Source of the DNA: Synechocystis sp. PCC 6803 substr. PCC-P
GTDB taxonomy: Bacteria; Cyanobacteriota; Cyanobacteriia; Cyanobacteriales; Microcystaceae
Direction of reading: 5' to 3'
Length of the DNA stretch: 32,000 nucleotides
Assembly (NCBI RefSeq): GCF_000284455.1
Contig: NC_017039.1
Span: forward strand, 1-32,000
Shown piece by piece: positions 13,498-29,931 of this stretch. Position 1 is the first letter of the stretch, and each line of letters opens with the position of its first letter. The translations under genes were made by a program, and so were the position numbers. The notes below the pieces were generated by a model. It searched no databases and was not told the origin of the DNA. It saw only the letters and a list, made by a program, of their open reading frames with translations.

Positions 13498-14529
13498 GTG
13501 CCCTTTCTCCAATGCATTATGCGATCGTCCTTGTATTTTCGAGCTAAATCTCCCGGTTATCTTGCCTTGGGCCTTGTCCTGGGGGCAACGGTTTTATTCG
13601 CCTGTCTAATATCCAGTATTCTCCTGGGAGCGGCGGATATTAGTCCCCAAACAGTGTGGCAAGCCCTATTTCAATTTGACGGTTCCACTGACCATTTAAT
13701 TATTCGCACGGTACGTTTACCCAGGGCCATTCTGGCGATCGTGGTGGGAGCTTCCTTGGCTGTGGCCGGGGCCATTACCCAGGGTTTAACCCGTAATCCT
13801 CTGGCAGCTCCCGATATTCTGGGGGTTAATGTGGGTGCGTCCTTAGCGGTGGTTCTGGCCACATTTATTGGTGGCGATGGTAGTAACCAGTGGGCATTTG
13901 CCTTCATTGGAGCGGCGATCGCCGCTGTAGTTGTCTATGGCTTGGGAACCCTTGGCCGCAGTGGTCTCACCCCAATTAAATTGGTCATTGCGGGGGCGGC
14001 CCTGTCGTATTTTTTAGGCTCTTTGACCACCGGCATTCTCCTGCTCAATCAACGTACCCTAGACGATATTCGCTTTTGGTTGGCCGGCTCCCTAGGGGGA
14101 CAAGATTGGAATGGTTTAACGGCGGTTTTGCCCTACATCATGGTTGGTTTGGTCAGTTCCCTTAGTTTGGGTAGGCAATTAACCTTACTGACCTTTGGAG
14201 AAGAAGTGGCCCAGGGATTAGGCCTAAAAACGGCCTGGGTAAAATTGGGGGCGGCAACGGTTTTGGTGTTACTGGCGGGCAGTGCCGTCGCCCTGGCGGG
14301 GCCGATTGGCTTTGTCGGTTTAATTGTGCCCCACGTGGTTCGTTTTGGGGTCGGAGTGGATTATCGATGGATTTTACCCTACGCCATGGTGATGGGGGGA
14401 ATTTTTCTTTCTGTGGCTGACATGGCCGCCCGATTATTGATCAGCCCGCAAGAACTACCAGTGGGCATTATGACTGCTTTGGTGGGGGCACCTTTTTTTA
14501 TTTATCTTGCCCGCTCCCAAATTAAATAA
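13498..14529 (+). CDS. fecC: FecCD-family ferric-siderophore ABC transporter permease
   Basis: 343 aa and polytopic, with FecCD hallmarks (RLPRAILAIVVGASLAVAGAITQGLTRNPLAAPDILGVN; C-terminal ELPVGIMTALVGAPFFIYL). Start is GTG 13498 or ATG 13519. Recalled as slr1316. Confidence 0.9.
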   Translation: MPFLQCIMRSSLYFRAKSPGYLALGLVLGATVLFACLISSILLGAADISPQTVWQALFQFDGSTDHLIIRTVRLPRAILAIVVGASLAVAGAITQGLTRNPLAAPDILGVNVGASLAVVLATFIGGDGSNQWAFAFIGAAIAAVVVYGLGTLGRSGLTPIKLVIAGAALSYFLGSLTTGILLLNQRTLDDIRFWLAGSLGGQDWNGLTAVLPYIMVGLVSSLSLGRQLTLLTFGEEVAQGLGLKTAWVKLGAATVLVLLAGSAVALAGPIGFVGLIVPHVVRFGVGVDYRWILPYAMVMGGIFLSVADMAARLLISPQELPVGIMTALVGAPFFIYLARSQIK

Positions 14530-14580
14530 TCAAACCTAACGGGTCAACTCCAAAGACAACCCAAGGCCATTCCAGGCTAA

Positions 14581-15675
14581 TTGATTGAATCCCGAATTTT
14601 ATTAACTGTTTGTTCCATTTGTGCCATGTTTGCCCCTCGACCTTGGATTGTGGTCCGTCTCCGGTCTTTACCCCTATCGTTTCGCCTCGATCGCCATGTC
14701 CCCTTGGTAATGGGATTACTTACTGCTCTAGCATTATTACTATTTATTCTCAATATTAGTTGGGGGGAATATCCTGTCCCTCCCTTGGCGATGCTCCAGG
14801 CCATCTTTGGGCTATCTACCGATGCTGACCATGAATTTGTGGTGCGTACTCTGCGATTACCCCGGTCCTTGGTGGCATTGTTGGTGGGTATGGGTTTGGC
14901 GATCGCCGGAGGGATTTTGCAAGGCATTACCCGCAATCCTTTGGCAGCCCCTGAAATTATTGGTGTCAATGCGGGGGCTAGTTTGGTGGCGGTTACCTTC
15001 ATCGTTTTGCTACCGGGTATTTCTCCTTCCTTGCTGCCAGTGGCCGCTTTTTGCGGTGGTTTAACAGCGGCGATCGCCATTTATGTGCTGGCTTGGAATC
15101 AGGGCAGTGCCCCCGTCCGGTTAATTTTGGTGGGCATTGGCCTAGCCGCATTAGCCAGTTCCCTCACCAGTTTGATGGTCACCTTTGGGGAAATTAGCGT
15201 GGTTAGTCAGGCCCTAGTTTGGCTCACTGGTAGCGTCCATGGCCGGGGTTGGGAACATTTATTGCCCCTGCTACCTTGGCTAGCCTTGTTTATTCCCCTC
15301 TCCTTGGCATTGGCCCGGGAGTTGGACACCCTAAACCTAGGGGACAATCTAGCCCGAGGATTGGGTAGCCGGGTGGAATGGATGCGGGGTCTTTTACTAG
15401 TTTGCAGTGTGGCCCTAGCGGGTTCCTGTGTGGCCACCGCCGGCAATATTGGCTTTGTCGGTTTGATGGCTCCCCACCTGGCCCGCCATCTGGTAGGCCC
15501 CTCCCATGGGGGCATGATTCCCGTTGCGGCCCTAACTGGAGCCTGCATTACAGAACTGGCAGATTTAATTGGTAGAACCGTTTTTGCCCCGATAGAAATT
15601 CCCTGCGGAGTAATTACGGCGATCGTGGGCGCTCCCTATTTTCTCTGGCTCCTATACCGAAATCGGAATCAATAG
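14581..15675 (+). CDS. fecD: FecCD-family ferric-siderophore ABC transporter permease (second subunit)
   Basis: Paralogous to the previous gene (RLPRSLVALLVGMGLAIAGGILQGITRNPLAAPEIIGVN; EIPCGVITAIVGAPYFLWLL). The ORF-track start is TTG 14581, but ATG 14626 is more plausible. Recalled as slr1317. Confidence 0.9.
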   Translation: MIESRILLTVCSICAMFAPRPWIVVRLRSLPLSFRLDRHVPLVMGLLTALALLLFILNISWGEYPVPPLAMLQAIFGLSTDADHEFVVRTLRLPRSLVALLVGMGLAIAGGILQGITRNPLAAPEIIGVNAGASLVAVTFIVLLPGISPSLLPVAAFCGGLTAAIAIYVLAWNQGSAPVRLILVGIGLAALASSLTSLMVTFGEISVVSQALVWLTGSVHGRGWEHLLPLLPWLALFIPLSLALARELDTLNLGDNLARGLGSRVEWMRGLLLVCSVALAGSCVATAGNIGFVGLMAPHLARHLVGPSHGGMIPVAALTGACITELADLIGRTVFAPIEIPCGVITAIVGAPYFLWLLYRNRNQ

Positions 15676-15936
15676 CCCCATGACCTCATTTACTTGTTTT
15701 TAGATAACGGTTTCCCGGGGTGAATTACACTGCTCAGTTAGAAAGCAAAAATTTCTTACTATTCCTAATTATTCTTAACAATTAATAGCCACTACAGCAA
15801 TATTTGCAGGAAAAAGGAAGAATCCCCATGGCGACCAAGCATTTAACAGAGGACTATTCGGCATTAAAACCCATTTCCCTGTCCCCCAGTCCTCTACAAT
15901 AATCTCTAATCTTATTAGTAGTTAATCTTAATAACT

Positions 15937-16743
15937 ATGTTGGATGTTGCCACTCCCATTGCCCTCACTACCAGGAAGCTCAGCCTAGCCTACGATAGTC
16001 ACCTAATTATTCAAGGGCTCGATTTGGCAATTAACCAAGGGGAAATCACCACACTGGTGGGACCAAATGGCTGTGGCAAATCTACTCTCCTACGGGGCAT
16101 GGCACGACTACTCAAACCCCAGGGCGGCACCGTGTATTTAGAAGGAGAGGCGATCGCCCATCTGCCCACCAAAGAATTGGCCAAACGTCTGGGTATTTTG
16201 CCCCAAAGCCCCCCCGCCCCGGAAGGATTAACTGTCAGGGAACTGGTGGCCCAGGGCCGTTATCCCCATCAAAACTGGCTACAACAATGGTCAAAACAGG
16301 ATGAATTGAAAGTAGAAGAGGCGATCGCCACCACCGATTTGCATCAATTTGCCAACCGCCCTCTTGATAGCCTTTCGGGAGGCCAACGCCAGAGAGCCTG
16401 GATTGCCATGGCCCTGGCCCAAGACACTGAAATTTTATTGTTAGACGAACCCACCACCTATCTCGATCTAGCCCATCAAATTGAAGTTTTAGATTTACTC
16501 CATTGGCTGAACCGGGAAGCAGGACGCACCATTGTGATGGTATTGCACGACCTCAATTTGGCCTGTCGCTATAGTCATCGCTTGATTGCCCTACGGGATG
16601 GAAAACTACTGGCCCAAGGACGACCCCAGGCGATCGTCACCGAAGAACTAGTACGACAAGTTTTTGGACTGGAGAGCCGCATCATCGCCGATCCCGTCAC
16701 TGGCACCCCTCTCTGTGTACCCGTTAGCCGACACCTAAAATGA
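15937..16743 (+). CDS. fecE: Ferric-siderophore ABC transporter ATP-binding protein
   Basis: Walker [13 protein letters not shown] signature LSGGQRQR, Walker B ILLLDEPT and H-loop VLHD. Recalled as slr1318. Confidence 0.93.
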
Positions 16744-17687
16744 AAAGTAAACTAATAATTTTTACTTTCTGCCTGGTGCTATTTGGTTGTGCTAAACAAG
16801 TACCCGTTGAATTTTCCCCTGGGGAAACCATTCAATCAAACCTAACCCAGCGCACCATAGCCCACGCCATGGGCGTAACGGCAGTCCCCAATGAGCCACA
16901 GCGCATAGTGGTGTTGACCAATGAAGCAACAGATATGGTATTGGCCTTGGGAGTCACCCCGGTGGGGGCAGTTAAATCTTGGTCCGGAGATCCTTACTAC
17001 GAATATTTAGCAAAGGATATGCTTGGAGTCCCCATCGTGGGAGATGAAATGCAGCCTAACCTAGAGAAAATTGTCGCCTTACAGCCGGACTTGATTATCG
17101 GTAGTCGGTTGCGCCAGGGACAAATTTACAAGTCACTGAGTGCCATTGCCCCCACAGTTTTTTCAGAAACCATTGGTGAATCATGGCAAGATAACCTACG
17201 TCTTTATGGGCAGGCCCTTGACAGAGAAGCCGAAGCGGAGCAACTTTTGAACGATTGGGACACGCGTGTGGCCCAAATGCGTCAAAAACTAAGTGCAAAA
17301 GATTTAACAATTTCCCTCGTCCGATTTATGCCAAGGGGAGCCCGCATTTATTTACAAAATTCTTTCCCCGGTCAAATTTTGCAGGCAGTGGGTTTGGAAA
17401 GACCGGCGAGTCAAGCTAACCATGGCTTTGCTGAACATGTTTCCTTCGAGCAAATTCCCCAAATGGAAGCTGATGCACTGTTTTACTTCATCTATACCGG
17501 AGATAGCGGGGACCAAACCCCCGGCAGCATAACGAATCCTTGGTTAAACCATCCCCTATGGCAGCAGTTGGAGGTTGTTCAATCGGGTAAGGCCTACGCT
17601 GTTAGCGATGTGGTTTGGACCACTGCCGGAGGTATCCAAGCCGCCCACCTGCTACTAGATGATTTGGAACGACATTTAGAGCCTTAG
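16740..17687 (+). CDS. fecB: Periplasmic ferric-siderophore/dicitrate binding lipoprotein
   Basis: The start overlaps the fecE stop (ATGA at 16740-16743), suggesting translational coupling. It has a lipobox LFGC in [20 protein letters not shown] and a class-III PBP layout ([22 protein letters not shown]). Recalled as slr1319. Confidence 0.9.
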
Positions 17688-21595: not shown

Positions 21596-21837
21596 GGGCA
21601 GATGGGAAGCTGAATAAGCTGAAGTAGATTGAAAGAATTGATCAATCTATTAGTCTACTCCTAATGCAAATTATTCCTAAATATTTGATGGGTTTAATTT
21701 ATTGAGCAAAGCCCTAACGGGCAAAATACCAGTGCAGTATATTTGTTGGAAAAATGTGCTGTGGCGATTGGGACAACCTTGTGGATTATCTCAATAACGA
21801 TGAGAGTTCAATGTCCCATAGGAGATGGTATTACTTG

Positions 21838-23121
21838 CTAATCATCCCCACGTTGATAAATCAATAGACCCCATAGCCCCAATAGAAATGCGAGCACTCC
21901 ACAGTTCACCATTAAGAATGCCATGCCGCTGCCTGGGGGAGGTCCAAAAATTTCATTGATAGGTAGGATTAAAAAGTTACTCAAGTGAGTCAGCATTACC
22001 GATATCTGATTAGCTAAAATTCCTGCGGCCAATCCAGATAAACTACTGATAACAGTGCCGATCAAATAATCTGCAGCCAATACTCGGCCTTGTATTTCCC
22101 GTGCAACTTTCTCATACCAAATTGCTGTATATGAACTGGTGATTAAGGGACTTGGTAGTGATGCACCAACGTTAGCTAGTAGCCAAAATTTTGGTTGGGC
22201 AATCAGTCCCATGGCCAATCGACTGAATCCATTGATTATAAAGCCAATAAAAATACCAGTTGTTCTTCTTTTGAAGCCTCCCCAAATACTACAAATAGTT
22301 CCTCCAACAATACCCCCCACTCCTCCGATGGCCACAATAATCCCTAAAATCTCAGTGTTTCCTCCAGTTTTTGCTAGAATCATAGGCTGGTAAATTACTT
22401 CAGTGATTCCTTCTACAAAGCTAAACAATGAAAAAATGATCAATATCTTTGATAAATTTGGATGGTTATAGATATATTTAAGTCCAAAAAATATATCGTC
22501 AACAAAATTTTCTTTCAATCGTACAACAAATAAAGTTTGGTTGGTGATTTTAGGAGATTTAATTCCGAATGCTATTGGTAGAATCAAGATCGTTATAGCG
22601 GCGATCATGAACGTTGTCATGTCAATTATTGTGATGCCAGTTAGCCCCATCACAGGAAATAAGATTCCAGCCAAAGCGGGGGCAACAATTCCGGCGCTAT
22701 ATGCAGTAATGGCTCCCATACTACTAGCACGAGCATGGTGTTGATAAGGAACAATTAAAGGGACCAGGGTAATATAACTAAGGGTTTGAATGTTACCAAA
22801 ACAACCAATAATAGATGCAATCAGATATATATACTTAACATTAAGAATCTGTAAAAAAGCTAGGATTCCCACAGAAAATGTACATACAGCAGAGCCGATA
22901 TCGCTAACAATTAGCAATTTTTTGTGAGAAAAATAATCAGTAAGGATACCAGATAAAGGTGTAATGATAATTTGCGGGAGCTGATAAAAAACTAAAATCA
23001 AAGCCACTGACATAGCAGAATTTGTCTTTTGCCATATCCATATAGTCAGAGAAAAATAAGTCATACCGCTACCAATAGACGACAGAGCCTGTCCCAAGCA
23101 AAGAGTGACAAAGGTCTTCAT
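21838..23121 (-). CDS. MFS transporter (EntS/macrolide-efflux-like annotation; transport direction unresolved)
   Basis: 427 aa with about 12 hydrophobic segments and a central hydrophilic loop around residues 185-225. AT-rich codon usage. It starts 17 nt after the upstream gene's stop. Recalled as sll1204. Confidence 0.88.
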   Translation of the reverse strand: MKTFVTLCLGQALSSIGSGMTYFSLTIWIWQKTNSAMSVALILVFYQLPQIIITPLSGILTDYFSHKKLLIVSDIGSAVCTFSVGILAFLQILNVKYIYLIASIIGCFGNIQTLSYITLVPLIVPYQHHARASSMGAITAYSAGIVAPALAGILFPVMGLTGITIIDMTTFMIAAITILILPIAFGIKSPKITNQTLFVVRLKENFVDDIFFGLKYIYNHPNLSKILIIFSLFSFVEGITEVIYQPMILAKTGGNTEILGIIVAIGGVGGIVGGTICSIWGGFKRRTTGIFIGFIINGFSRLAMGLIAQPKFWLLANVGASLPSPLITSSYTAIWYEKVAREIQGRVLAADYLIGTVISSLSGLAAGILANQISVMLTHLSNFLILPINEIFGPPPGSGMAFLMVNCGVLAFLLGLWGLLIYQRGDD

Positions 23122-23138
23122 TTATTTTTGTAAATTAA

Positions 23139-24104
23139 TTATTTATCAATTTCTTTTAAGTAGCTGACACTATACTGCTTGACAGAAATAAGTTCATCTC
23201 CTGAATTTCTAGCAGTCATCACTGACCCATTGACTTCAACTCTTGCAAAATAAGCTCCTTTAACTTTATCGGGAGAAATAAAATCAAATTGAACCTCTAC
23301 CCAATTGGGATCATGCTGATTATCATCCATGTTCAATATTTGAGCTGATTTTTGATAATTTAACCATTGCCAACCTCGTTGAGTCCAAATTTCACGCTCA
23401 ACAATCTGGGCAAATTTTGTTACGCCTACCCAACCTCGATAAAATTTATAAAGTTGTTTAACTTGACCTTCTTGCCTTACCAGATTATCTAAAACTTCAG
23501 ACTCAAGATGTCCCCAAACTTGCCCATTTGGAAAATCAATTAAAGTCGGAGCAAACTGATGTCCCCCAAAATGAGAGCAGCGCCATATTCTTAAATTTTT
23601 TGATGCATATTTTTGTCGTAATTGTTTATAAATAGGATAACCAAATCTCGAACAAGCCACATCAATGTTTCCATGAGTACATACCATCATATCTCGATCA
23701 ACAACATCTGACAGTTTATAGTTACGAAAATTTTCTAACTCTGGAGATTGATAACATAAATTTTTGATAAGATCCCACCTTTGATCATCAGGAACTAAAT
23801 ATTCTTCTTTTATAAAACTGGAAAAGAGCAAATTAAACTTTTGGTAGTGAATAATACGACTAAATCCTGATTGAGAATACTCGTGATCTGAGGCGATCGC
23901 CATTGGAGATACTTTAACTCCTTGATCAGAAAGTTGATGAAAAAGATCATGAATTGGTTTAAGAATGGGGTCATGATGAAAGCGTTCCTCTGTCCAAGGT
24001 TGGGGTAATTCCATAATTAACCAACGATCACTTGAATTTGCTGTGCCGATAGGATCTTCCCCGTTAGATTTGGAAATAACGGAACAAAATTGACAATTAA
24101 TCAT
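23139..24104 (-). CDS. Sucrase/ferredoxin-like (thioredoxin-like, putative [2Fe-2S]) protein
   Basis: 321 aa with no signal peptide. The N-terminal block CQFC...IGTANSSDRWLIMELPQPW is present, as are C-X8-C (VCTHGNIDVAC, residues 142-151) and H-X3-H (SHFGGH, residues 178-182). The start overlaps the upstream stop (ATGA 24101-24104). Recalled as sll1203. Confidence 0.8.
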   Translation of the reverse strand: MINCQFCSVISKSNGEDPIGTANSSDRWLIMELPQPWTEERFHHDPILKPIHDLFHQLSDQGVKVSPMAIASDHEYSQSGFSRIIHYQKFNLLFSSFIKEEYLVPDDQRWDLIKNLCYQSPELENFRNYKLSDVVDRDMMVCTHGNIDVACSRFGYPIYKQLRQKYASKNLRIWRCSHFGGHQFAPTLIDFPNGQVWGHLESEVLDNLVRQEGQVKQLYKFYRGWVGVTKFAQIVEREIWTQRGWQWLNYQKSAQILNMDDNQHDPNWVEVQFDFISPDKVKGAYFARVEVNGSVMTARNSGDELISVKQYSVSYLKEIDK

Positions 24105-25144
24105 GGTTTTTGATTGGTTAAGAGTTGTTTTTTTAATTCATTAAGATAAAGTTTTGTACCGAAAAAACCTGGTAAACCCGTGCATAGATAAGTTGGAATA
24201 TAATAAACACGATTTTCTCGACTTGCTTTCATTGATTGTGTTATTGCATTTTCTGACCACTGTTGTTGTAAATTAGATAATTGATGCTCAGTAAAATTTT
24301 GTCTACTTTTTGATTTATTGAATTCTTGAAAATTATAACCTAAGATAATAATTGAATTGGCATTATTTAACTTAGGAAGAGATTCTAAAGAAAGGGGCAG
24401 TCTTGAATTTGTAGATGTACCTGCTCCTGGTAAAGAAACTAATTCAAATCCCAATTCTTCAATTAGAGAGCTACAAAGATCTTCATTATTGGCAATAGAC
24501 AATTCCTGTAAATTTTGAGCATGAAGTAGAAGCATTTTGGGGTATCCTGCAACAATTTTGGAAAATTCCTGCTTTGCTTTTTCAATTTCTTGCTGAGTTT
24601 CTTGTAAAAGTTGTTCGACTTTTTCTTCTTGCTTAACAGCCTGGGCAATCTTCTCTAGATTTTCAGTAGGTTCATTCCAAGATAACATTAAGGTAGGTGC
24701 AAGTTGAGAAAATTTTTGATATTCATTTTTATTATGATCAGGACTCAAAATTAAATCAGGTTTTGCTTTAAAAATTCCTTCTAACGAAGGCATGTAAGCA
24801 ATTCCTACATTGGCAATGGGTTTATTAATATATTGTCCCAAATAAGGAATTTGCTCGGTAGGATGATCATAATCTTCTTTATGAAAAGCAATGTGATCTG
24901 CATAGGCAATAGGTTGAATGTTTAACGCTAGTAAAGGTTCTAATAAATAGGGACCAAGTACAACAACTCTTTGAGGAATTCCACAGATTTCAGTTTCTCC
25001 CATTTTATGCTCAATTATCCGGCAACCTTTTTTATCTGATTGTTGTAGATGTGAAGATCGATCTATGTTTGTATTACAAGAAGTCAAAAGAGACGTCATA
25101 AAAATCATGAGAGTAGAAAAGTAATTTATCTTATATTTTTTCAT
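24101..25144 (-). CDS. Periplasmic siderophore-binding lipoprotein (FecB/FhuD-like)
   Basis: 347 aa with a signal peptide and lipobox (MIFMTSLLTSCNT). It has PBP class-III features (RVVVLGPYLLEPLLALNIQPIAYA; KPDLILS) and is paralogous to fecB at 16740-17687. Recalled as sll1202. Confidence 0.88.
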   Translation of the reverse strand: MKKYKINYFSTLMIFMTSLLTSCNTNIDRSSHLQQSDKKGCRIIEHKMGETEICGIPQRVVVLGPYLLEPLLALNIQPIAYADHIAFHKEDYDHPTEQIPYLGQYINKPIANVGIAYMPSLEGIFKAKPDLILSPDHNKNEYQKFSQLAPTLMLSWNEPTENLEKIAQAVKQEEKVEQLLQETQQEIEKAKQEFSKIVAGYPKMLLLHAQNLQELSIANNEDLCSSLIEELGFELVSLPGAGTSTNSRLPLSLESLPKLNNANSIIILGYNFQEFNKSKSRQNFTEHQLSNLQQQWSENAITQSMKASRENRVYYIPTYLCTGLPGFFGTKLYLNELKKQLLTNQKP

Positions 25145-25265
25145 ACAATAATTTAAATATGTAAGTATAAATAGCTCTCCTCTGCTTTTTGACTGGAGCT
25201 AAAGAAGAGCAGATTTTTTTGAACTTCCTAAATCATTAAAAAAACAGCAAGTAACTTTTAATGAT

Positions 25266-27839
25266 TTAAAACTGAACCGAAAATGAGCCAATAATAATAA
25301 ATGGTTCACCAGGTTCAATTCCTGTTTGGTTACCACTGACTGCTCGGACGTAGTTAGCATTAGTAAAATTCCTCAAGTTTAGGGCAACTCGATATTTATC
25401 TCGTTGGTAAAAAATCGCTGCGTTTCCGATGATATAATCCCCCACTGTGTAGGTATTAGCTAAATCACCAAAACGATCGCCAACGTAATTAAAGCCAATT
25501 CCAAACCCTAGTCCTTGTAATGCCCCCGATTGAATTTCATAGGTCGTCCATAAATTCGCCATATTATAGGGAATACCAAATAGGCGGTTATCGACAAAAT
25601 TAGGATCTGTATCCTCGGTGACTTTTGCATTGATATAAGAATAGTTACCAATAATTTTCCAGCCGGGTAAAATTTCTCCCACAATATCTAGTTCAATGCC
25701 TTGGCTTTGTTGTGTTCCAATGGTAGATAAAAATAGGGGATTAACTGGATCGCTAACCGCTACATTATTTTTACTAATATTAAAATAAGTTAAGGTTGTG
25801 AGAAGTTGTTGCTCAAATAGTTCCGCTTTAACGCCAATTTCAAAACCTTCTCCCCGTTCTGGTTCTAGGGGATTGCCACTGATATCTATTCCACTATTGG
25901 GAGTGAAAGATTGGGAATAGTTGCTAAAGAAGCTAATTTCCGGAATTGGACGATATAGTAGGCCTATCCTTGGTGTAACTGCACTATCTGTTTGTTGTGT
26001 ATTTCCCCCTTGGTTAAAATCAGTTTGTAAATTATTTGTGTTTTGAGTGATAGTATCGTAACGAAGTCCTGCAACTAAAATTAGATTTTCTAATAAAGAA
26101 ACTTGATCCTGTAGATAAATTCCCAAACGATTGGAACTGGTAAAAGTATCGCCAAAAAGAGGTAAATCAGAGCGATTAGGTTTGGGAATTGCATTATAAT
26201 CGGGATCAAATACGTTAATTGACGTCGGACCACCAAAAAGCGTTAAAATACTCTCTTCAGACCAGTTATAATCAATTCCAGCTAAGAGCTCATGTTTAAC
26301 TGAGCCTGTAGAAAATTTACCGACAGCATTGGTATAGAAAGAATAGGAGCCCTGTTGTCCGTCCTGGTCAGCAAAGAAGCGGGTAACCGTTGGCCCATTC
26401 ACAATAGTAGGAAGAGCAATGACGTTATAGTCATAGTTGTAGCTCATATAGCGAAAAGCATTGCGTAACTTCCAATTTTCATTGAAGCGATGCTCTAGAT
26501 TATATCCAGCGCTAATAAAGTTTTTGTTAACAATATCACTGGGATCATTAATTACCCGCGAGCGGGGTACTGGTGCAACCCCATCTCCGAAGCTACTCAA
26601 GCCAAAGTCAGCAGGATTCGTGTCATTAATATATTCAACAGCTAAACTTAAATCTGTGTCGTCAGTGATAGCATAGGTGACAATGGGAGCGTAGGCAAAT
26701 CGTTCTAACGGTTGATTAAAGTCGCGAAAACTCGCTTCATTACTATAAACGCCGTTTAATCGATAACGTAAATTCCCACTGGGATTTAAACCACCTGAAA
26801 TATCAAAACGGGGACGAACTAATCCTTGATTACCTAATTGCACTTCGACTTCAGCAAACGGTTCATTAAGTGGTTTTTTCGAGTTTAAATTAATTACACC
26901 TCCGGGTTCAATTTGGCCATATAAAATAGAAGAAGGACCTTTGAGCACTTCCACCTGTTGTAGGTGAGAAACTTCCGTAATCCCTTGAAACCCTCCATAA
27001 AGTCGAAAACCATCCCTAAGAATAGGAACCGTATCACTAAATTGATTGCCAAATCCTCGAATACCAAAGATAGTTTCTCTTCCCCCTGTAGTACCGCCAA
27101 AAGTCACACTGCTAACATTTGTCAACACATCTTCGAGGGTGATGGCTTGTTGGGAACGAATTACTTCTTCTGAAACAACCTGTGCAGAAAAAGGCGTATC
27201 CATAATGGGAGTGTCAGTCCCCGTGGCAACCGAAGTGTTGGGAACGAAAAATTCTTGGACTGCTGCTTCTTCTTCTCGGGTAGCAACAATTTCGATTTCT
27301 TCTTCCGATTCCACTGTGTTAATTGGAGGCGTTAGGCTCAAAATTAAATTTTCGGATGATGGTATCACCTGAGCGGCGGGAACAGTACCATTGCCAGTTA
27401 CGGTAATGCGTAGTGAATTTGAACTTGTCTGTACGGCGGTTATTTGACTAATTTGCTCACTGGGATTCTCAACTATAAAATTTTCCCCATCTGGTAGCCT
27501 TAAAACTGCGTCTAAAATATCGATGATGAGAATATTGTCCTCACTAATAATTAAGGGTATTAGCTGGGATTGATCGGCCGTTTTTAAAATTAATTCAATG
27601 CCAGTTTGCGTATCTTTAAGTTCAATTTGGATAACTTCTTTAATTTGAGCTTGGGATATTTGCTGTTGCCAATTTTCTATCTTTACATTTGCCTTATATT
27701 CATTCTGTAACTCCTGATCTTCTAATTTTTCTTTTTCAGATAAATTACTTTCCCCTACTGATCCTAGGGCAACACCAGAATGTAAGGCCGTCAAACCAAT
27801 CAAAACGGCGAGCGAAGTCTGTTCCAAAATTTTGATCAT
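25266..27839 (-). CDS. TonB-dependent siderophore receptor (FhuA-like) with N-terminal extension
   Basis: Contains a plug (EIEIVATREEE...; VEVLKGPSSILYGQIEPGGVINLNSKKP), a barrel and a terminal ...GSFSVQF. I place the start at ATG 27839 (MIKILEQTSLAVLIGLTALHSGVALG), preceded by GGGGAG. The ORF-track start is GTG 27857. Recalled as sll1409. Confidence 0.9.
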   Translation of the reverse strand: MIKILEQTSLAVLIGLTALHSGVALGSVGESNLSEKEKLEDQELQNEYKANVKIENWQQQISQAQIKEVIQIELKDTQTGIELILKTADQSQLIPLIISEDNILIIDILDAVLRLPDGENFIVENPSEQISQITAVQTSSNSLRITVTGNGTVPAAQVIPSSENLILSLTPPINTVESEEEIEIVATREEEAAVQEFFVPNTSVATGTDTPIMDTPFSAQVVSEEVIRSQQAITLEDVLTNVSSVTFGGTTGGRETIFGIRGFGNQFSDTVPILRDGFRLYGGFQGITEVSHLQQVEVLKGPSSILYGQIEPGGVINLNSKKPLNEPFAEVEVQLGNQGLVRPRFDISGGLNPSGNLRYRLNGVYSNEASFRDFNQPLERFAYAPIVTYAITDDTDLSLAVEYINDTNPADFGLSSFGDGVAPVPRSRVINDPSDIVNKNFISAGYNLEHRFNENWKLRNAFRYMSYNYDYNVIALPTIVNGPTVTRFFADQDGQQGSYSFYTNAVGKFSTGSVKHELLAGIDYNWSEESILTLFGGPTSINVFDPDYNAIPKPNRSDLPLFGDTFTSSNRLGIYLQDQVSLLENLILVAGLRYDTITQNTNNLQTDFNQGGNTQQTDSAVTPRIGLLYRPIPEISFFSNYSQSFTPNSGIDISGNPLEPERGEGFEIGVKAELFEQQLLTTLTYFNISKNNVAVSDPVNPLFLSTIGTQQSQGIELDIVGEILPGWKIIGNYSYINAKVTEDTDPNFVDNRLFGIPYNMANLWTTYEIQSGALQGLGFGIGFNYVGDRFGDLANTYTVGDYIIGNAAIFYQRDKYRVALNLRNFTNANYVRAVSGNQTGIEPGEPFIIIGSFSVQF

Positions 27840-27905
27840 TTTTTGTGCTCCCCACACTTACTGATAATTAATGGATATATTCTAGGGGAAAGCCAAAATG
27901 TATTT

Positions 27906-27947
27906 CTTTGTAGGACGGACTTTTTTCTTTGTGAAACGGACTTTTTA
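27906..27947 (-). promoter_or_regulatory. Perfectly tandem 21-bp direct repeat (17/21 identical), candidate PcrR operator of the receptor promoter
   Basis: Plus strand reads CTTTGTAGGACGGACTTTTTT (27906-27926) / CTTTGTGAAACGGACTTTTTA (27927-27947). The repeat lies between the AraC gene stop (27990) and the receptor ATG (27839). A possible -10 TAGAAT (27884-27879, minus strand) puts the proximal repeat against the -35 position. Confidence 0.5.
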
Positions 27948-27989
27948 GATCATAACTTTTCTTCTGTCAGAATGAAAAACTGCTTACTA

Positions 27990-29030
27990 CTATTTGTAGA
28001 AAATTGTCTTTTGATGGGTTTTGGGGCTAACTCCAAATTTTCGTCTAAATGCCATGCAAAAAGCTTCTGGATTGGTATATCCTACCCTTTGTGCTACCTG
28101 GGCCACGGATAAGTTATTATCTGCTAATAATTGCTGAGCCTGTTGCATGCGATAATTATACAGATAACCAAATACGGTCGTGCCAAATAGTTGACGAAAG
28201 CCTTGTTTTAGCTTACGCTCATTTAAGCTAACTTGTCGAGATAACTGTGCCAAGGAAGGAGGATCAAGTACTTGTTTGACCAAGATTTCCTGTGCATATT
28301 TCACTCTTTCTAAATCGTCTTTTTTTAATTGAGATGCTTTTTTTTCTGATTTAGTAGCATCCATACAATTAAATTGCCAGGCAAATAATTCTAAAGCCTT
28401 ACTTTCTAAATAAATTTGTTTAATTATGCCTTGATAGGGACATTGATAAATTTGCTGTAATATCTCAGTGACTTTAAGTGTGTTTTTACCTAGTGATAAG
28501 TGGAACTTTAAATCACGATCGCCTGTGATTAATTGGTTAATTAAGCTAGGAGCAAAGTTTTCACTTTGATAAAAACAACTGAAATAATCAACAGGAGCAT
28601 AAACACTAACTAATTTTATTTCAGTATCACATGGCCATTGCTCGAGTTCTGATAAATTAGGTAAATGATAAAGATAATTTCTGCCCGCTAATTCTGTATA
28701 TTTTGGCTCAATTTCTTTAGTTTTAAATGTTTCTACTACTGAATTTCCTGTAAGATAAAAGTGAGCAACTAGAGGAAAATTCTTCTTATGATTCCTCTTT
28801 AAGTACATAACTTCGGCAAGTTGTACCTGAATAATTTCAATTGTTAAGCCGTCCCTCAACTGGATAGATCGATTATACCCTTTACCCAGTCTTTGCGGTA
28901 AATTTATTATGGTTTCATTGTCTTGAAAATGTACTGTAAATTCATCAAAATCAACAATTTGTCTTGAAGTAGTTGGTTGATTTGGTAAAACAATCGTGGT
29001 GTTGGGATCAAATACATTAACATCTTTCAT
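27990..29030 (-). CDS. pcrR: AraC-family transcriptional regulator, PchR/PcrR-like
   Basis: 346 aa with a C-terminal double HTH (LAQLSRQVSLNERKLKQGFRQLFGTTVFGYL...AQVAQRVGYTNPEAFCMAFRRKFGVSPK). It is colinear with the regulator at 20615-21595 but in much more AT-rich DNA. Recalled as sll1408. Confidence 0.9.
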   Translation of the reverse strand: MKDVNVFDPNTTIVLPNQPTTSRQIVDFDEFTVHFQDNETIINLPQRLGKGYNRSIQLRDGLTIEIIQVQLAEVMYLKRNHKKNFPLVAHFYLTGNSVVETFKTKEIEPKYTELAGRNYLYHLPNLSELEQWPCDTEIKLVSVYAPVDYFSCFYQSENFAPSLINQLITGDRDLKFHLSLGKNTLKVTEILQQIYQCPYQGIIKQIYLESKALELFAWQFNCMDATKSEKKASQLKKDDLERVKYAQEILVKQVLDPPSLAQLSRQVSLNERKLKQGFRQLFGTTVFGYLYNYRMQQAQQLLADNNLSVAQVAQRVGYTNPEAFCMAFRRKFGVSPKTHQKTIFYK

Positions 29031-29097
29031 TTTTGCTTCGGGGTTTTATGAAATTTATCAAAAAGATACTCTGAAGGTAATACCGAAATTAAAATCA

Positions 29098-29895
29098 TCA
29101 TTTTACTGTGTATGCCCAGATTTCGAATTGTGCTTGAGACGATAACTCCACCTTTAATGAATCGTAATATTCATAACAAAATACTTCAAATTCCTTTATG
29201 GCAAGATTAAATGCTTCATCTGGAAGGAGCCAGCATAATCCATAGGCATGTGATCTGTAAAAATGGAGTAGTTCTTGCACCTGATTGCTTACCGTCCATT
29301 CCTTAGCTGTCAAATAATTACACTGATACCCTTTATTTAGTAAATATTCATCTATATTAATTTTGTTAGTTACTTCTAATGATTGTTGTGAAGGCTTTGG
29401 CTCTTGATACTTAAGCAAAATAGTTTTGAAATGGTTCTCAAATTCTAGATGTGCAGGGGGAGTAACCCATTGAGCATTTAAATAAAAACCATTTGGTTTT
29501 AGGACTCGATCAATCTCATCTAAAAACATACCTAAATTGGAAACAGAATGAAGCATATGAACCGTTAACACTACGTCGAAGCTGCTGTCTGGAAAAGATA
29601 GTTGCGATGCATCTTCATGGATCAACCTAAGATTCGGAGGAATACGGGGCAACTTTTGAGAAAATTGGCTAAGCATTTCCTGAGAAATATCAACACCAGT
29701 TACAGAATAACCACGTCTGACTAAAGGAATGACATTGAGCCCAGTCCCTACACCAGGCTCAAGAAAAGTAGTTTCTCTTGTTGCCTTCACTAGAGCGAGA
29801 ATAAAATCTGCAACTTCTTCAGCAATTGGTTCTGTCATCCAGCGAGTTTGATCGTAAATGTCAGCAATTTTGCTGTAGTAAACATTTTTTTTCAT
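29098..29895 (-). CDS. Class I SAM-dependent methyltransferase
   Basis: 265 aa with motif I FLEPGVGTGLN, an acidic post-I residue (VTGVDIS), motif II/III region (FDVVLTVHMLH, LKPNGFY), and an unassigned C-terminal domain of about 110 aa. Recalled as sll1407. Confidence 0.85.
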   Translation of the reverse strand: MKKNVYYSKIADIYDQTRWMTEPIAEEVADFILALVKATRETTFLEPGVGTGLNVIPLVRRGYSVTGVDISQEMLSQFSQKLPRIPPNLRLIHEDASQLSFPDSSFDVVLTVHMLHSVSNLGMFLDEIDRVLKPNGFYLNAQWVTPPAHLEFENHFKTILLKYQEPKPSQQSLEVTNKINIDEYLLNKGYQCNYLTAKEWTVSNQVQELLHFYRSHAYGLCWLLPDEAFNLAIKEFEVFCYEYYDSLKVELSSQAQFEIWAYTVK

Positions 29896-29931
29896 CTTTC
29901 CAATCCTGGTTTTGGAGCATTAGAAAATTTA

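Follow-up and report, generated by a model that had tools for sequence, protein, structure and literature searches.

Among the closest described systems is the cctA-F gene set of Leptolyngbya sp. NIES-3755 (bioRxiv 10.64898/2026.07.30.741596), which lies beside a biosynthetic cluster in a siderophore producer and encodes an AMIN-TonB receptor, a binding protein, an MFS protein (interpreted by its authors as an exporter), a Suc_Fer thioredoxin-like ferredoxin and two FecCD permeases of its own. The yeast proteins Apd1 and Aim32 are bis-histidinyl [2Fe-2S] ferredoxins (Stegmaier et al. 2019, as cited in PMC8482512), whose cluster-ligand motif, CX8C...HX3H, is defined in PMC8482512. FhuF and SIP are the only families recognized among cytoplasmic ferric-siderophore reductases; both are proton-coupled (redox-Bohr), and a potential of -420 mV is quoted for FhuF. 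No cyanobacterial ferric-siderophore reductase has been characterized so far, and the sole characterized cyanobacterial siderophore exporter is SchE (All4025) of Anabaena, also an MFS protein.

We analyzed a window of 32,000 nucleotides (positions 1 to 32,000 of contig NC_017039.1) from the Synechocystis sp. PCC 6803 substr. PCC-P genome. The initial annotation of this DNA had described three packed minus-strand genes, and their boundaries were found to be exactly as given there (Table 1). These genes, sll1202, sll1203 and sll1204, are intact ORFs encoding proteins of 347, 321 and 427 aa, respectively. The stop codon of sll1202 overlaps the start codon of sll1203 (ATGA), 17 nt separate the sll1203 stop from the ATG of sll1204 (position 23121), and the triad module is free of ABC transporter genes, all as previously noted. 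The TonB-dependent receptor gene placed upstream of the triad (sll1409) is indeed present, at a distance of 121 nt, although its start was misassigned: position 27839 is an in-frame ATG, and the gene begins with a GTG at 27857. The receptor exceeds the cut-off of TIGR01783 (364.7 versus 223.5 bits), and its closest named models are FhuA and FoxA. The 121-nt spacer contains a perfect inverted repeat that overlaps the receptor stop codon, and the folding energy of the spacer RNA is -27.8 kcal/mol (z = -3.0).

Table 1. Features of the cassette and of related loci within the window
Feature	Position	Strand	Basis
Low-GC island holding the whole cassette	21600..29900		GC, GC3 vs flanks
sll1204, 12-TM MFS protein of DHA3/EntS-like (MFS_3) type	21838..23121	-	PF05977, PF07690
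sll1203, cytoplasmic Suc_Fer-like thioredoxin-like ferredoxin, candidate reductase	23139..24104	-	PF06999
Sll1203 conserved C-terminal domain, residues about 225-321	23142..23432	-	Conserved, outside Pfam domain
Sll1203 cluster-binding motif C142-X8-C151 ... H178-X3-H182	23559..23681	-	Conservation and motif definition
Sll1203 N-terminal C4-x-x-C7	24084..24095	-	Conservation in homologue alignment
sll1202 (fecB2), lipoprotein siderophore-binding protein	24101..25144	-	Peripla_BP_2, NCBIfam matches
Sll1202 Glu254, C-lobe, SLE motif	24383..24385	-	Invariant alignment column
Sll1202 Glu122, N-lobe, PSLE motif	24779..24781	-	Invariant alignment column
13-nt perfect inverted repeat TAAATCATTAAAA / TTTTAATGATTTA	25229..25268		Sequence search of spacer
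sll1409 (fhuA1), TonB-dependent siderophore receptor, N-terminal AMIN	25266..27857	-	Pfam AMIN, Plug, TonB_dep_Rec_b-barrel
sll1408 (pcrR / iutR2), AraC-family cassette regulator	27990..29030	-	Pfam HTH_18, HTH_AraC
sll1407, class-I SAM methyltransferase	29098..29895	-	Pfam Methyltransf_11, Methyltransf_25
slr1316-slr1319 (fecC, fecD, fecE, fecB1), type II ABC importer	13498..17687	+	Pfam FecCD, ABC_tran, Peripla_BP_2

The triad makes up the distal half of a siderophore-uptake cassette that was acquired horizontally and is regulated by iron. The full set is composed of (i) the AraC regulator Sll1408, (ii) the AMIN-TonB receptor Sll1409, (iii) Sll1202, (iv) Sll1203 and (v) the MFS protein Sll1204. 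The GC content from sll1204 to sll1407 is 32-39% (GC3 18-33%), compared with 48-53% in the fec genes and the flanking sll1205/sll1206; the compositional contrast between the triad and the fec genes, remarked upon earlier, is real. The cassette has been described as an insertion that is missing from strain PCC 6714 (PMC8634477), and its nearest relatives outside Synechocystis occur in the genus Geminocystis. The same island holds sll1407 (36.7% GC), whose connection with the cassette is uncertain; a methyltransferase-SucFer fusion of Rubrobacter shows only a generic resemblance to Sll1407.

Published data show that fecB2, sll1203 and sll1204 are co-transcribed under the control of Fur (PMC8634477) and that sll1202 is induced 2.7-fold upon iron depletion (PMC11221513), so two checks proposed in the initial annotation, on co-transcription and iron response, had already been answered. 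The regulator Sll1408 has also been named and studied (PMC11221513). In the literature searched, we found no biochemical or genetic test of any of the three genes. Synechocystis does not produce siderophores (PMC8634477).

Many cyanobacterial genera carry this gene set, and purifying selection acts on each of the three genes (dN/dS 0.13-0.29 between strains 6803 and PCC 7339); the cassette is therefore more than a chance association. The order AraC-TBDT-PBP-SucFer-MFS is found in Lusitaniella, Symploca, Anabaena, Leptolyngbya, Goleter and a Nostoc PCC 7120-like genome. An AraC gene heads the cassette in many other cyanobacteria, and the 4-nt PBP/SucFer overlap is often retained. Geminocystis carries TBDT-PBP-SucFer-MFS, with a Suc_Fer protein 74% identical to that of Synechocystis. 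We also inspected 10 kb around the Suc_Fer gene in 84 non-redundant loci: uptake genes were present in 39 and NRPS/PKS genes in 55, and 78 loci had at least one of the two kinds, which marks the Suc_Fer protein as a steady cytoplasmic companion of siderophore traffic. In Nostocales clusters the Suc_Fer gene was observed right after two P450 genes, where it could be a P450 redox partner and not a siderophore reductase.

The pathway that we prefer, and to which we assign roughly an even chance, leads from the receptor through the binding protein and a shared FecCDE importer to reduction by Sll1203 and expulsion of the iron-free ligand by Sll1204; its substrate, docking partner, reductase activity and direction of MFS transport are all predicted. 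According to this model, (i) a ferric xenosiderophore, probably of the hydroxamate type, would be carried across the outer membrane by Sll1409 with energy from the TonB/ExbBD system, whose genes lie close by, (ii) Sll1202 would capture it in the periplasm and dock via its two lobe glutamates on FecC/FecD/FecE (encoded 4-8 kb away), which would import it into the cytoplasm, (iii) Sll1203, with electrons from ferredoxin or flavodoxin, would reduce the bound Fe(III) and set Fe(II) free, the His ligands of its Cys2His2 [2Fe-2S] cluster permitting proton-coupled electron transfer, and (iv) Sll1204 would act as a DHA3/EntS-type proton antiporter and export the iron-free ligand, possibly modified first, which would permit its re-use and prevent chelation of intracellular iron.

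Sll1203 matches the Suc_Fer-like family with 112.6 bits (cut-off 34.9), and no signal peptide is visible in its sequence. The bis-His [2Fe-2S] signature ascribed to it earlier was confirmed, since all four ligand residues of CX8C...HX3H are invariant in 18 aligned homologues. The core of its structure model (pLDDT 80.8) resembles the Aquifex thioredoxin-like [2Fe-2S] ferredoxin, with a match probability of 0.93-0.99. In the homologue alignment, C7 of the N-terminal motif is invariant and C4 is present in at least 90% of sequences; residues 1-16 are disordered in the model. The C-terminal domain, modelled separately (pLDDT 86), consists of one helix and a four-stranded sheet; its matches are at best weak and NTF2/VirB8-like, none with E <0.06, and it is possibly a substrate-binding module. 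The Pfam search revealed no FhuF or SIP domain in the cassette proteins, and the Sll1203 sequence contains no CC motif. Its genomic company is best explained by ferric-siderophore reduction, as suggested in the initial annotation. Sll1203 is a good candidate for such a reductase, of which it would represent a third class.

This company includes loci in which SucFer directly follows importer genes, either FecCD-FecCD-ATPase (L028, L029, L031) or PBP-FecCD-ATPase (L098), or, in L099, has a fused ABC gene plus a binding-protein gene ahead of it. The Rubrobacter order is PBP, methyltransferase-SucFer fusion, flavodoxin, with the flavodoxin as a plausible electron donor. Judging by the chemistry of Rieske proteins, mitoNEET and Apd1, bis-His [2Fe-2S] clusters usually have potentials above that of FhuF, so that hydroxamate reduction by Sll1203 would be uphill unless Fe(II) were trapped. 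It also counts against the preferred pathway that the CctD ferredoxin is dispensable in the cyanochelin system (bioRxiv 10.64898/2026.07.30.741596), which may reflect complementation in trans, since the host has Sll1203.

The dispensability of CctD for cyanochelin-dependent growth is also consistent with Sll1203 being a general electron carrier or a redox/iron sensor that accompanies siderophore genes and is not a reductase; it could be a P450/oxygenase partner in producers, a redox gate of the adjacent efflux pump or a guard against siderophore-linked oxidative damage. The order P450-P450-(TauD)-SucFer-MATE, typical of about 45 Nostocales loci, fits such roles, as do the 53 of 84 loci with an efflux-family pump directly beside SucFer and the functions of yeast Apd1 and Aim32, which concern redox stress and quality control and not iron release (PMC8482512). 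We nevertheless consider this explanation unlikely. The uptake-only cassettes of the non-producers Synechocystis and Geminocystis lack P450 and biosynthetic genes, and neither a pump nor a P450 accompanies SucFer in L028, L029, L031 and L098. Moreover, class-A and class-B Suc_Fer proteins show about 50% identity from end to end, and both have the additional C-terminal domain; this speaks for a single molecular function.

With regard to import, Sll1202 matches Peripla_BP_2 with 64 bits (cut-off 27.5) and, as the initial annotation had proposed, is a lipoprotein, bearing a signal peptide together with a lipobox (LLTS-C23). Its PDB sequence matches are exclusively siderophore- or iron-compound-binding proteins. 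The columns of Glu122 and Glu254 are invariant in the alignment of Sll1202, FecB1 and 15 cassette binding proteins. By analogy with E72/E202 of BtuF, glutamates with a role in docking to the ABC permease, these residues are presumed to dock Sll1202 on a FecCD-type ABC permease. We propose that the slr1316-slr1319 importer serves Sll1202 in trans. It had been placed more than 6 kb from the triad, which holds for fecD (end 15675; 6.2 kb) but not for fecE (16743; 5.1 kb) or fecB1 (17687; 4.15 kb); a second AraC-receptor pair, sll1205/sll1206, lies in between. Schizokinen uptake has been assigned to FecCDE/FecB1 (Obando et al. 2018, as summarized in bioRxiv 10.64898/2026.07.30.741596).

Sll1204 contains both MFS_1 and MFS_3 Pfam domains and matches TIGR00900 (3e-46) and, further, MefA, EntS, Tap and Tet(V), i.e. 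efflux families only, its score being below the curated cut-off of every named NCBIfam model. Its motif A is conserved, and it has a motif-C-like 'aPalAG'. Sll1204 is probably an efflux pump for the iron-free siderophore that operates beside an ABC importer. The direction of its transport cannot be read from the sequence, which counts against the preferred pathway, and the fungal siderophore-iron MFS transporters are importers.

The initial annotation had favoured import that bypasses ABC transporters, with Sll1202 delivering to Sll1204 and Sll1203 acting as a cytoplasmic reductase; if true, Sll1204 would be the first MFS importer dependent on a periplasmic binding protein. This reading agrees with the absence of ABC genes from the island and the tight coupling of the three genes. 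The MFS protein behaves as a cassette-specific part, as do receptor and binding protein, and TBDT-PBP-MFS is a recurrent unit that lacks a FecCD gene within 10 kb in L091, L018, L022, L087 and L034, so that ABC dependence in Geminocystis (L091), Anabaena (L018/L022) and Nostoc (L087) is an assumption. It is, however, not favoured, and we regard it as improbable, even more so than a carrier or sensor role of Sll1203. Secondary carriers known to depend on a binding protein belong to the TRAP and TTT types, to which Sll1204 bears no resemblance, and we know of no binding-protein-dependent MFS transporter. The RhtX/FptX-type logic invoked for it found no counterpart, as Sll1204 has no RhtX/FptX match even at E<=10 and its named homologues are all exporters. 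Sll1202 retains the docking glutamates. MFS and FecCD genes occur together in cctA-F and six of our loci (L007, L019, L043, L076, L077, L093), those of L077 belonging to one same-strand run of genes (TBDT-PBP-MFS-SucFer-FecCD-FecCD), and a MATE efflux pump replaces the MFS protein immediately downstream of SucFer in 37/84 loci, in Nostocales siderophore clusters. This co-occurrence and replacement, together with the efflux-family matches, favour the earlier fallback suggestion that the MFS protein recycles apo-siderophore. Finally, the foreign receptor and binding protein CctA and CctB suffice in Synechocystis, the inner-membrane components coming from the host (bioRxiv 10.64898/2026.07.30.741596), an experiment that does not specify which host transporter is used.

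That sll1203 and sll1204 are mere passengers from a producer's export/maturation module, roleless in Synechocystis, is very improbable: the island is foreign DNA, its host makes no siderophore and the MFS protein of producers is read as an exporter of the native siderophore, but the two ORFs are intact and co-transcribed, purifying selection acts on them (dN/dS 0.13 for sll1203, 0.29 for sll1204), both are unbroken in strain 7339, in which the AraC gene is broken, and Geminocystis keeps the same four genes in the absence of NRPS/PKS genes within 10 kb.

The preferred pathway, with ABC import, reduction and ligand expulsion, may finally be compared with known systems. The cassette and cctA-F share a receptor, binding protein, MFS protein and ferredoxin. 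The layout of cctA-F is that of L077 (equivalents also occur in L015 and L019), with the MFS gene before the ferredoxin gene, whereas the Synechocystis cassette belongs to a non-producer, has no permease genes and includes an additional AraC regulator. Sll1203 resembles Apd1/Aim32 in its PF06999 domain, CX8CXnHX3H motif and thioredoxin-like ferredoxin fold. Apd1 and Aim32 function in redox stress and in the quality control of mitochondria and are not known to be linked to siderophores, whereas Sll1203 has an N-terminal CxxC, an extra C-terminal domain of ~95 residues and genes of a siderophore locus as neighbours. In its proposed job, i.e. cytoplasmic, iron-regulated, reductive iron release by a protein whose gene accompanies siderophore uptake genes, Sll1203 would resemble FhuF/FchR and the SIPs (ViuB, YqjH); it has no sequence or fold kinship with FhuF/FchR (C-C-X10-C-X2-C) or the flavin SIPs. 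Unlike the [2Fe-2S] cluster of FhuF/FchR, its own would have Cys2His2 ligands within a thioredoxin-like fold, and the His ligands could likewise give redox-Bohr behaviour. RhtX/FptX are, like Sll1204, MFS-type inner-membrane proteins whose genes adjoin that of a TonB-dependent siderophore receptor, and they function without a binding protein. Sll1204 shares with EntS/DHA3 exporters the MFS_3 domain and the TIGR00900, MefA and EntS matches. It differs from EntS and SchE in that its gene belongs to a non-producer's uptake cassette; its cargo would accordingly be a foreign siderophore undergoing recycling.

The initial annotation had described three minus-strand genes packed as an operon downstream of a receptor gene, and this arrangement is present as described (see the table; window positions are identical to AP012277.1 coordinates 1-32000). 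A protein identical in sequence to the Suc_Fer-like one is encoded on the chromosome of Synechocystis sp. PCC 6803. The stop codon of sll1202 and the start codon of sll1203 overlap by ATGA, a 17-nt gap lies ahead of the MFS start at 23121, and the binding protein is a lipoprotein with the lipobox LLTS-C23. Upstream, a 121-nt spacer leads to sll1409 (receptor), which is followed by sll1408 (AraC; pcrR/iutR2), sll1407 (methyltransferase) and sll1406 (receptor). Downstream are sll1205 (AraC) and sll1206 (receptor) and, on the opposite strand, slr1319-slr1316 (fecB1, fecE, fecD and fecC). The first 13 kb of the window contain housekeeping genes without relation to the cassette.

Genes of the triad in the window
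Gene and family	Position	Strand	Basis
sll1202 (fecB2), Peripla_BP_2	24101-25144	-	ORF call, Pfam
sll1203, Suc_Fer-like	23139-24104	-	ORF call, Pfam 112.6 bits
sll1204, MFS_1/MFS_3	21838-23121	-	ORF call, Pfam

The six genes from sll1204 to sll1407 have a G+C content of 32-39% (GC3 18-33%), versus 48-53% for the fec genes and sll1205/sll1206, which bears out the claimed difference in composition between the island and the fec genes. The remark that FecCDE is encoded more than 6 kb away holds for the permease genes, but fecB1 ends only 4.15 kb, and fecE lies 5.1 kb, from the triad. The set pcrR-fhuA1-fecB2-sll1203-sll1204 has been described as an insertion in strain 6803, missing from strain 6714, and was placed in the Fur regulon; fecB2 is co-transcribed with sll1203 and sll1204 (Riediger et al. 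2021, PMC8634477), and sll1202 is up-regulated 2.7-fold on iron depletion (PMC11221513). The co-transcription and iron response that the initial annotation had wanted checked are hence already on record. No functional study of sll1202, sll1203 or sll1204 was found in the literature, and a promoter and terminator scan of 21.4-29.2 kb gave counts at or under shuffle expectation. The product of sll1409 combines Plug and barrel domains with an AMIN domain and matches TIGR01783 with 364.7 bits (cut-off 223.5); by its domains and this score, it is a predicted TonB-dependent siderophore receptor. The locus is almost certainly a siderophore cassette.

Within the spacer between the receptor gene and the triad (25145-25265; RNA fold -27.8 kcal/mol, z = -3.0), a 13-nt perfect inverted repeat, TAAATCATTAAAA / TTTTAATGATTTA (25229-25268), overlaps the sll1409 stop codon and is followed by a second hairpin. 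The arms of the repeat are similar to Fur-box half sites (AATGATT / AATCATT), and it could act as an operator or, at the RNA level, as a hairpin for processing or attenuation.

The binding protein Sll1202 matches PF01497 (Peripla_BP_2) with 64 bits versus 27.5, and 34 PDB sequences, among them YfmC, SirA, HtsA, CeuE, FepB and BauB. Two glutamates, E122 and E254, one per lobe, do not vary among Sll1202, FecB1 and 15 binding proteins of cassettes. They presumably correspond to E72 and E202 of BtuF, and such lobe glutamates would dock on FecCD-type permeases, as in BtuF/BtuCD. With its family, solved relatives and lobe glutamates, Sll1202 has the predicted features of a binding protein of a type II ABC importer. 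Besides the lipobox cysteine, Sll1202-type binding proteins, including those of the cassettes in L009-L076, contain four conserved cysteines (motifs DCR, ICG, LCS and YLC). These cysteines, which FecB1 and FecB1-like binding proteins lack, may form two disulfides marking a subfamily.

The PF06999 match of Sll1203 (gathering score 34.9) spans residues 19-224. A word-indexed search gave 953 matches, the top 120 of which are all cyanobacterial (full-length identity 45-94%), and the Suc_Fer-like family comprises 3,072 clusters at E≤1e-3 in a representative library clustered at 50% identity. Residues C142, C151, H178 and H182 are invariant in an 18-sequence alignment; CX8CXnHX3H is the defining motif of the Apd1/Aim32 bis-histidinyl [2Fe-2S] proteins (PMC8482512). 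In the AlphaFold model (pLDDT 80.8, pTM 0.80), the core has clear Foldseek matches (probability 0.89-0.99) to (i) the Aquifex ferredoxin Fd4 (1f37, 1m2d, 1m2a; probability 0.93-0.99, target-normalised TM 0.5-0.6) and (ii) NuoE-like subunits of hydrogenases and formate dehydrogenase. Based on family, motif and modelled thioredoxin-like ferredoxin fold, Sll1203 is predicted to be of the Apd1/Aim32 type and to carry a [2Fe-2S] cluster. It has no signal peptide and should therefore be cytoplasmic.

Additional features conserved across the 18 sequences are H144, H199, C4-x-x-C7 and about 95 C-terminal residues that extend past the Pfam domain. The C-x-x-C (window 24084-24095, residues 4-7) lies in an N-terminus that is disordered in the model; C7 is invariant and C4 is kept in at least 90% of sequences. 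H144 and H199 are likewise invariant and separate from the four presumed cluster ligands. C4/C7 together with H144 and H199 could form a second metal site or a site of Fe(II) hand-off, or the cysteines a redox-active pair. By itself, the C-terminal domain is modelled with confidence (pLDDT 86), as a single helix against a sheet of four strands. Foldseek searches with the whole protein and with this domain gave only weak NTF2/VirB8/cystatin-like matches for its fold (E never below 0.06, TM 0.3-0.4), none of them a convincing relative, and a PDB profile search with the Sll1203 alignment gave no match at E≤1.

Membership in either recognised type of siderophore reductase was rejected. Sll1203 contains neither FhuF or FhuF_C Pfam domains nor a CC dipeptide (the cluster motif of FhuF-type reductases is C-C-X10-C-X2-C), which rules out a FhuF-type reductase. 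PF06999 is its sole Pfam match, with no FAD-binding or SIP domains, which rules out a SIP/ViuB flavoreductase. No literature tying Suc_Fer-like or sucrase ferredoxin proteins to siderophores was found by those names.

We also performed a census of the gene neighbourhoods of Sll1203 relatives (SucFer). The scan, with one genome per species, yielded 270 loci, the best 80 of which were fetched, and further loci came from look-ups of individual proteins. ORFs were labelled by BLASTP against the window proteins and seed proteins from Pfam-annotated loci, and counts were taken on 84 non-redundant loci, termed closest. Siderophore uptake genes (39) and/or NRPS/PKS genes (55) occur within 10 kb in 78 of the 84, and an MFS or MATE gene is present in 62. 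The gene directly downstream of SucFer encodes a MATE protein at 37 loci and an MFS protein at 12; at four, an MFS gene lies directly upstream.

The loci form two main classes. Class A (uptake cassettes) has the Synechocystis form, (AraC)-TBDT-PBP-SucFer-MFS, where TBDT is the TonB-dependent receptor and PBP the binding protein, and was found in Lusitaniella, Symploca, Anabaena, Leptolyngbya, Goleter, a Nostoc PCC 7120-like genome and Geminocystis. The co-occurrence of Suc_Fer-like, binding protein and MFS genes, which the initial annotation had wanted searched for in other genomes, extends to many cyanobacterial genera, and the 4-nt PBP/SucFer overlap is often kept. Variants of this class are TBDT-PBP-MFS-SucFer (L015, L019, L077), TBDT-MFS-SucFer with no binding protein labelled (L061, L085) and FecCD-FecCD-ATPase-SucFer (L028, L029, L031). 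Class B (Nostocales gene clusters) is PKS-NRPS-P450-P450-(TauD)-SucFer-MATE-(OMT), sometimes extended by AraC-TBDT-PBP-fused ABC-Fur. It is widespread, with about 45 Nostocales loci (L033-L092, e.g. L089 and L092 1-12428), and these probably represent siderophore clusters. Beyond the best 80 loci, one metagenomic contig has the order PBP-FecCD-ATPase-SucFer, another contig carries fused ABC-PBP-SucFer within an NRPS cluster, and Rubrobacter has a PBP gene, then a methyltransferase-SucFer fusion, then a flavodoxin gene.

The cytoplasmic SucFer protein accompanies siderophore traffic throughout, whereas the adjoining membrane transporter varies (FecCD/ATPase, fused ABC, MFS or MATE). This combination fits action on the internalised ferric siderophore, i.e. 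that of a reductase, a role to which we give rather better than an even chance. The flavodoxin of Rubrobacter is a plausible electron donor.

Several individual loci deserve mention. In Rubrobacter sp. (L095-L097), the Peripla_BP_2 protein gene overlaps the next gene by 1 nt; this encodes the fusion (596 aa; class-I SAM methyltransferase plus Suc_Fer-like domain) and is followed by flavodoxin and DUF3386 genes. The Synechocystis island has a stand-alone Methyltransf_11 gene, sll1407 (29098-29895). A link between the two was rejected: the similarity, 34% over 92 residues of the SAM-binding core, is generic, and methyltransferase genes are not consistently close to SucFer at other loci. Two proteins (P0368 and P0382, from Mycolicibacterium and a metagenome) join a xylose-isomerase-like TIM barrel (AP_endonuc_2) to a Suc_Fer-like domain; the family therefore also occurs in contexts without an evident siderophore link. 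Thalassoporum mexicanum PCC 7367 (L093) has a compact iron island, in which AraC-TBDT-PBP-MFS-MFS-(OFeT-like)-ferritin, all on one strand, is followed by a solitary SucFer gene, ATPase-FecCD-FecCD-ExbD-ExbB, TonB and another TBDT-PBP pair; its two tandem MFS genes stand next to a full ABC system.

For Sll1204, the best-supported direction of transport is outward. The protein matches PF05977 (MFS_3) with 49.8 bits versus 27, TIGR00900 (DHA3) at E 3e-46 (158 bits versus a cut-off of 319.6) and the EntS model with 52 bits versus 324, scores that place it near DHA3/EntS-like MFS proteins at family level and not as an equivalog. Its NCBIfam matches are exclusively efflux models (TIGR00900, MefA, EntS, Tap and Tet(V)), apart from a phospholipid acyltransferase fusion model that matches weakly (E 1.6e-05). 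The JGI label of its homologues is "DHA3 family, macrolide efflux", and motif A and, in TM5, a motif-C-like "aPalAG" are conserved. Its Pfam matches are MFS_1 and MFS_3 only, with no DctM/DctQ or TctA-type component (TRAP, TTT), and a PDB sequence search gave no match at E≤0.01. No PCC 7120 label occurs among the top 120 Sll1204 homologues that would link it to SchE (All4025), an experimentally supported exporter whose sequence relation to Sll1204 is not given in the SchE literature found. Judged by these matches and by the gene contexts given below, Sll1204 is probably an exporter.

The initial annotation had instead proposed that Sll1204 imports the ferric siderophore in place of an ABC importer, by analogy with FptX/RhtX-type permeases, and several cassettes (L018, L022, L087, L091) indeed have no FecCD gene within 10 kb. 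This reading now appears unlikely. No RhtX/FptX model is found among the Sll1204 matches at E≤10 (HMMER filters can drop very weak matches), which speaks against the analogy. MFS and FecCD genes occur together at six loci (L007, L019, L043, L076, L077, L093), and form one same-strand run in L077 and in the cyanochelin B transport cassette (cctA-F) of Leptolyngbya sp. NIES-3755. At 37 loci the position next to SucFer is taken by MATE, often overlapping SucFer or within 25 nt of it; this family is known for efflux only. The glutamates of Sll1202, presumed to dock on a permease, are kept. Finally, the cyanochelin cassette comprises an AMIN receptor (cctA), a binding protein (cctB), an MFS protein read by the authors as an exporter (cctC) and FecCD (cctE/F), and CctA and CctB are sufficient to restore growth of Synechocystis on cyanochelin, the host presumably supplying permeases, ATPase and ferredoxin (preprint of 30 July 2026, 10.64898/2026.07.30.741596). 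The inner-membrane machinery of a host can thus serve the binding protein of a foreign cassette, whichever transporter is used. Use of an ABC importer in trans is quite likely for Sll1202. Also unlikely is the full combination in which Sll1204 is a genuine importer that receives its substrate from the lipoprotein Sll1202, and Sll1203 is the bis-His [2Fe-2S] reductase dedicated to it. Sll1204 would then be the first MFS carrier to depend on a periplasmic binding protein, and would provide an ATP-independent inner-membrane ferric-siderophore route in cyanobacteria.

The view that sll1203 and sll1204 are passenger genes was rejected as the main explanation, since the genes are under purifying selection and are retained in Geminocystis, where the same four genes stand without biosynthetic genes in the vicinity. 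The dN/dS values between 6803 and Synechocystis sp. PCC 7339 are 0.22 (sll1202), 0.13 (sll1203) and 0.29 (sll1204), similar to those of neighbouring genes (0.06-0.19). Between these strains, the binding protein (L100 8961-10004) is 68% identical (dS 0.90), and its flanks are 97% (receptor, dS 0.08), 94% (SucFer) and 94% (MFS) identical. This mosaic divergence suggests a replacement of the binding-protein allele through recombination, perhaps with changed specificity. In PCC 7339 the pcrR/sll1408 AraC gene (L100 5081-6120) is broken, probably through a frameshift, into two ORFs (239 and 104 aa), and the transport genes are intact.

In the pathway that we favour, a siderophore would pass from Sll1409 to Sll1202 and through the shared FecCDE, Sll1203 would reduce it and Sll1204 would expel the ligand, under the control of Fur and the AraC regulator Sll1408. 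It builds on the identity, conservation, co-transcription, iron response and selection of the genes; we infer the substrate, docking partner, reductase activity and pumping direction, and give the path as a whole about an even chance. Efflux of a deferrated foreign siderophore would be physiologically sensible in a non-producer, because it would avoid iron chelation inside the cell and let the ligand be re-used. The pairing of SucFer with an MFS or MATE pump suggests a built-in "reduce and expel" recycling step. Synechocystis makes no siderophore, so this step would act on those of other organisms; among cyanobacterial models, it is the most tractable one.

The literature has already noted the locus and its oddity. 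What our analysis adds is a quantitative census, the finding that MFS and MATE are equivalents in one and the same position, operons in which ABC genes directly adjoin SucFer, the Rubrobacter order PBP-(methyltransferase-SucFer)-flavodoxin and the conservation of the presumed docking glutamates. Together, these results shift the hypothesis from import independent of an ABC system to a ferric-siderophore reductase of a third class, coupled with efflux of the ligand. Only two cytoplasmic families of reductases for ferric siderophores are recognised, namely flavin SIPs and FhuF-type FSRs, both of which depend on proton-coupled redox behaviour, and none has been characterised in any cyanobacterium. 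In SucFer, the histidine cluster ligands could be the source of such behaviour, and a third such family is indicated by our comparisons, the Suc_Fer-like Cys2His2 [2Fe-2S] proteins. This would be the first physiological role for bacterial members of the Apd1/Aim32 family, and would account for the release of iron from siderophores imported by cyanobacteria. A described counterpart is present in the cyanochelin cassette, whose authors noted a ferredoxin class recurrent in cyanobacterial siderophore loci and left its role open: cctD encodes a thioredoxin-like ferredoxin of the same family as Sll1203 (10.64898/2026.07.30.741596).
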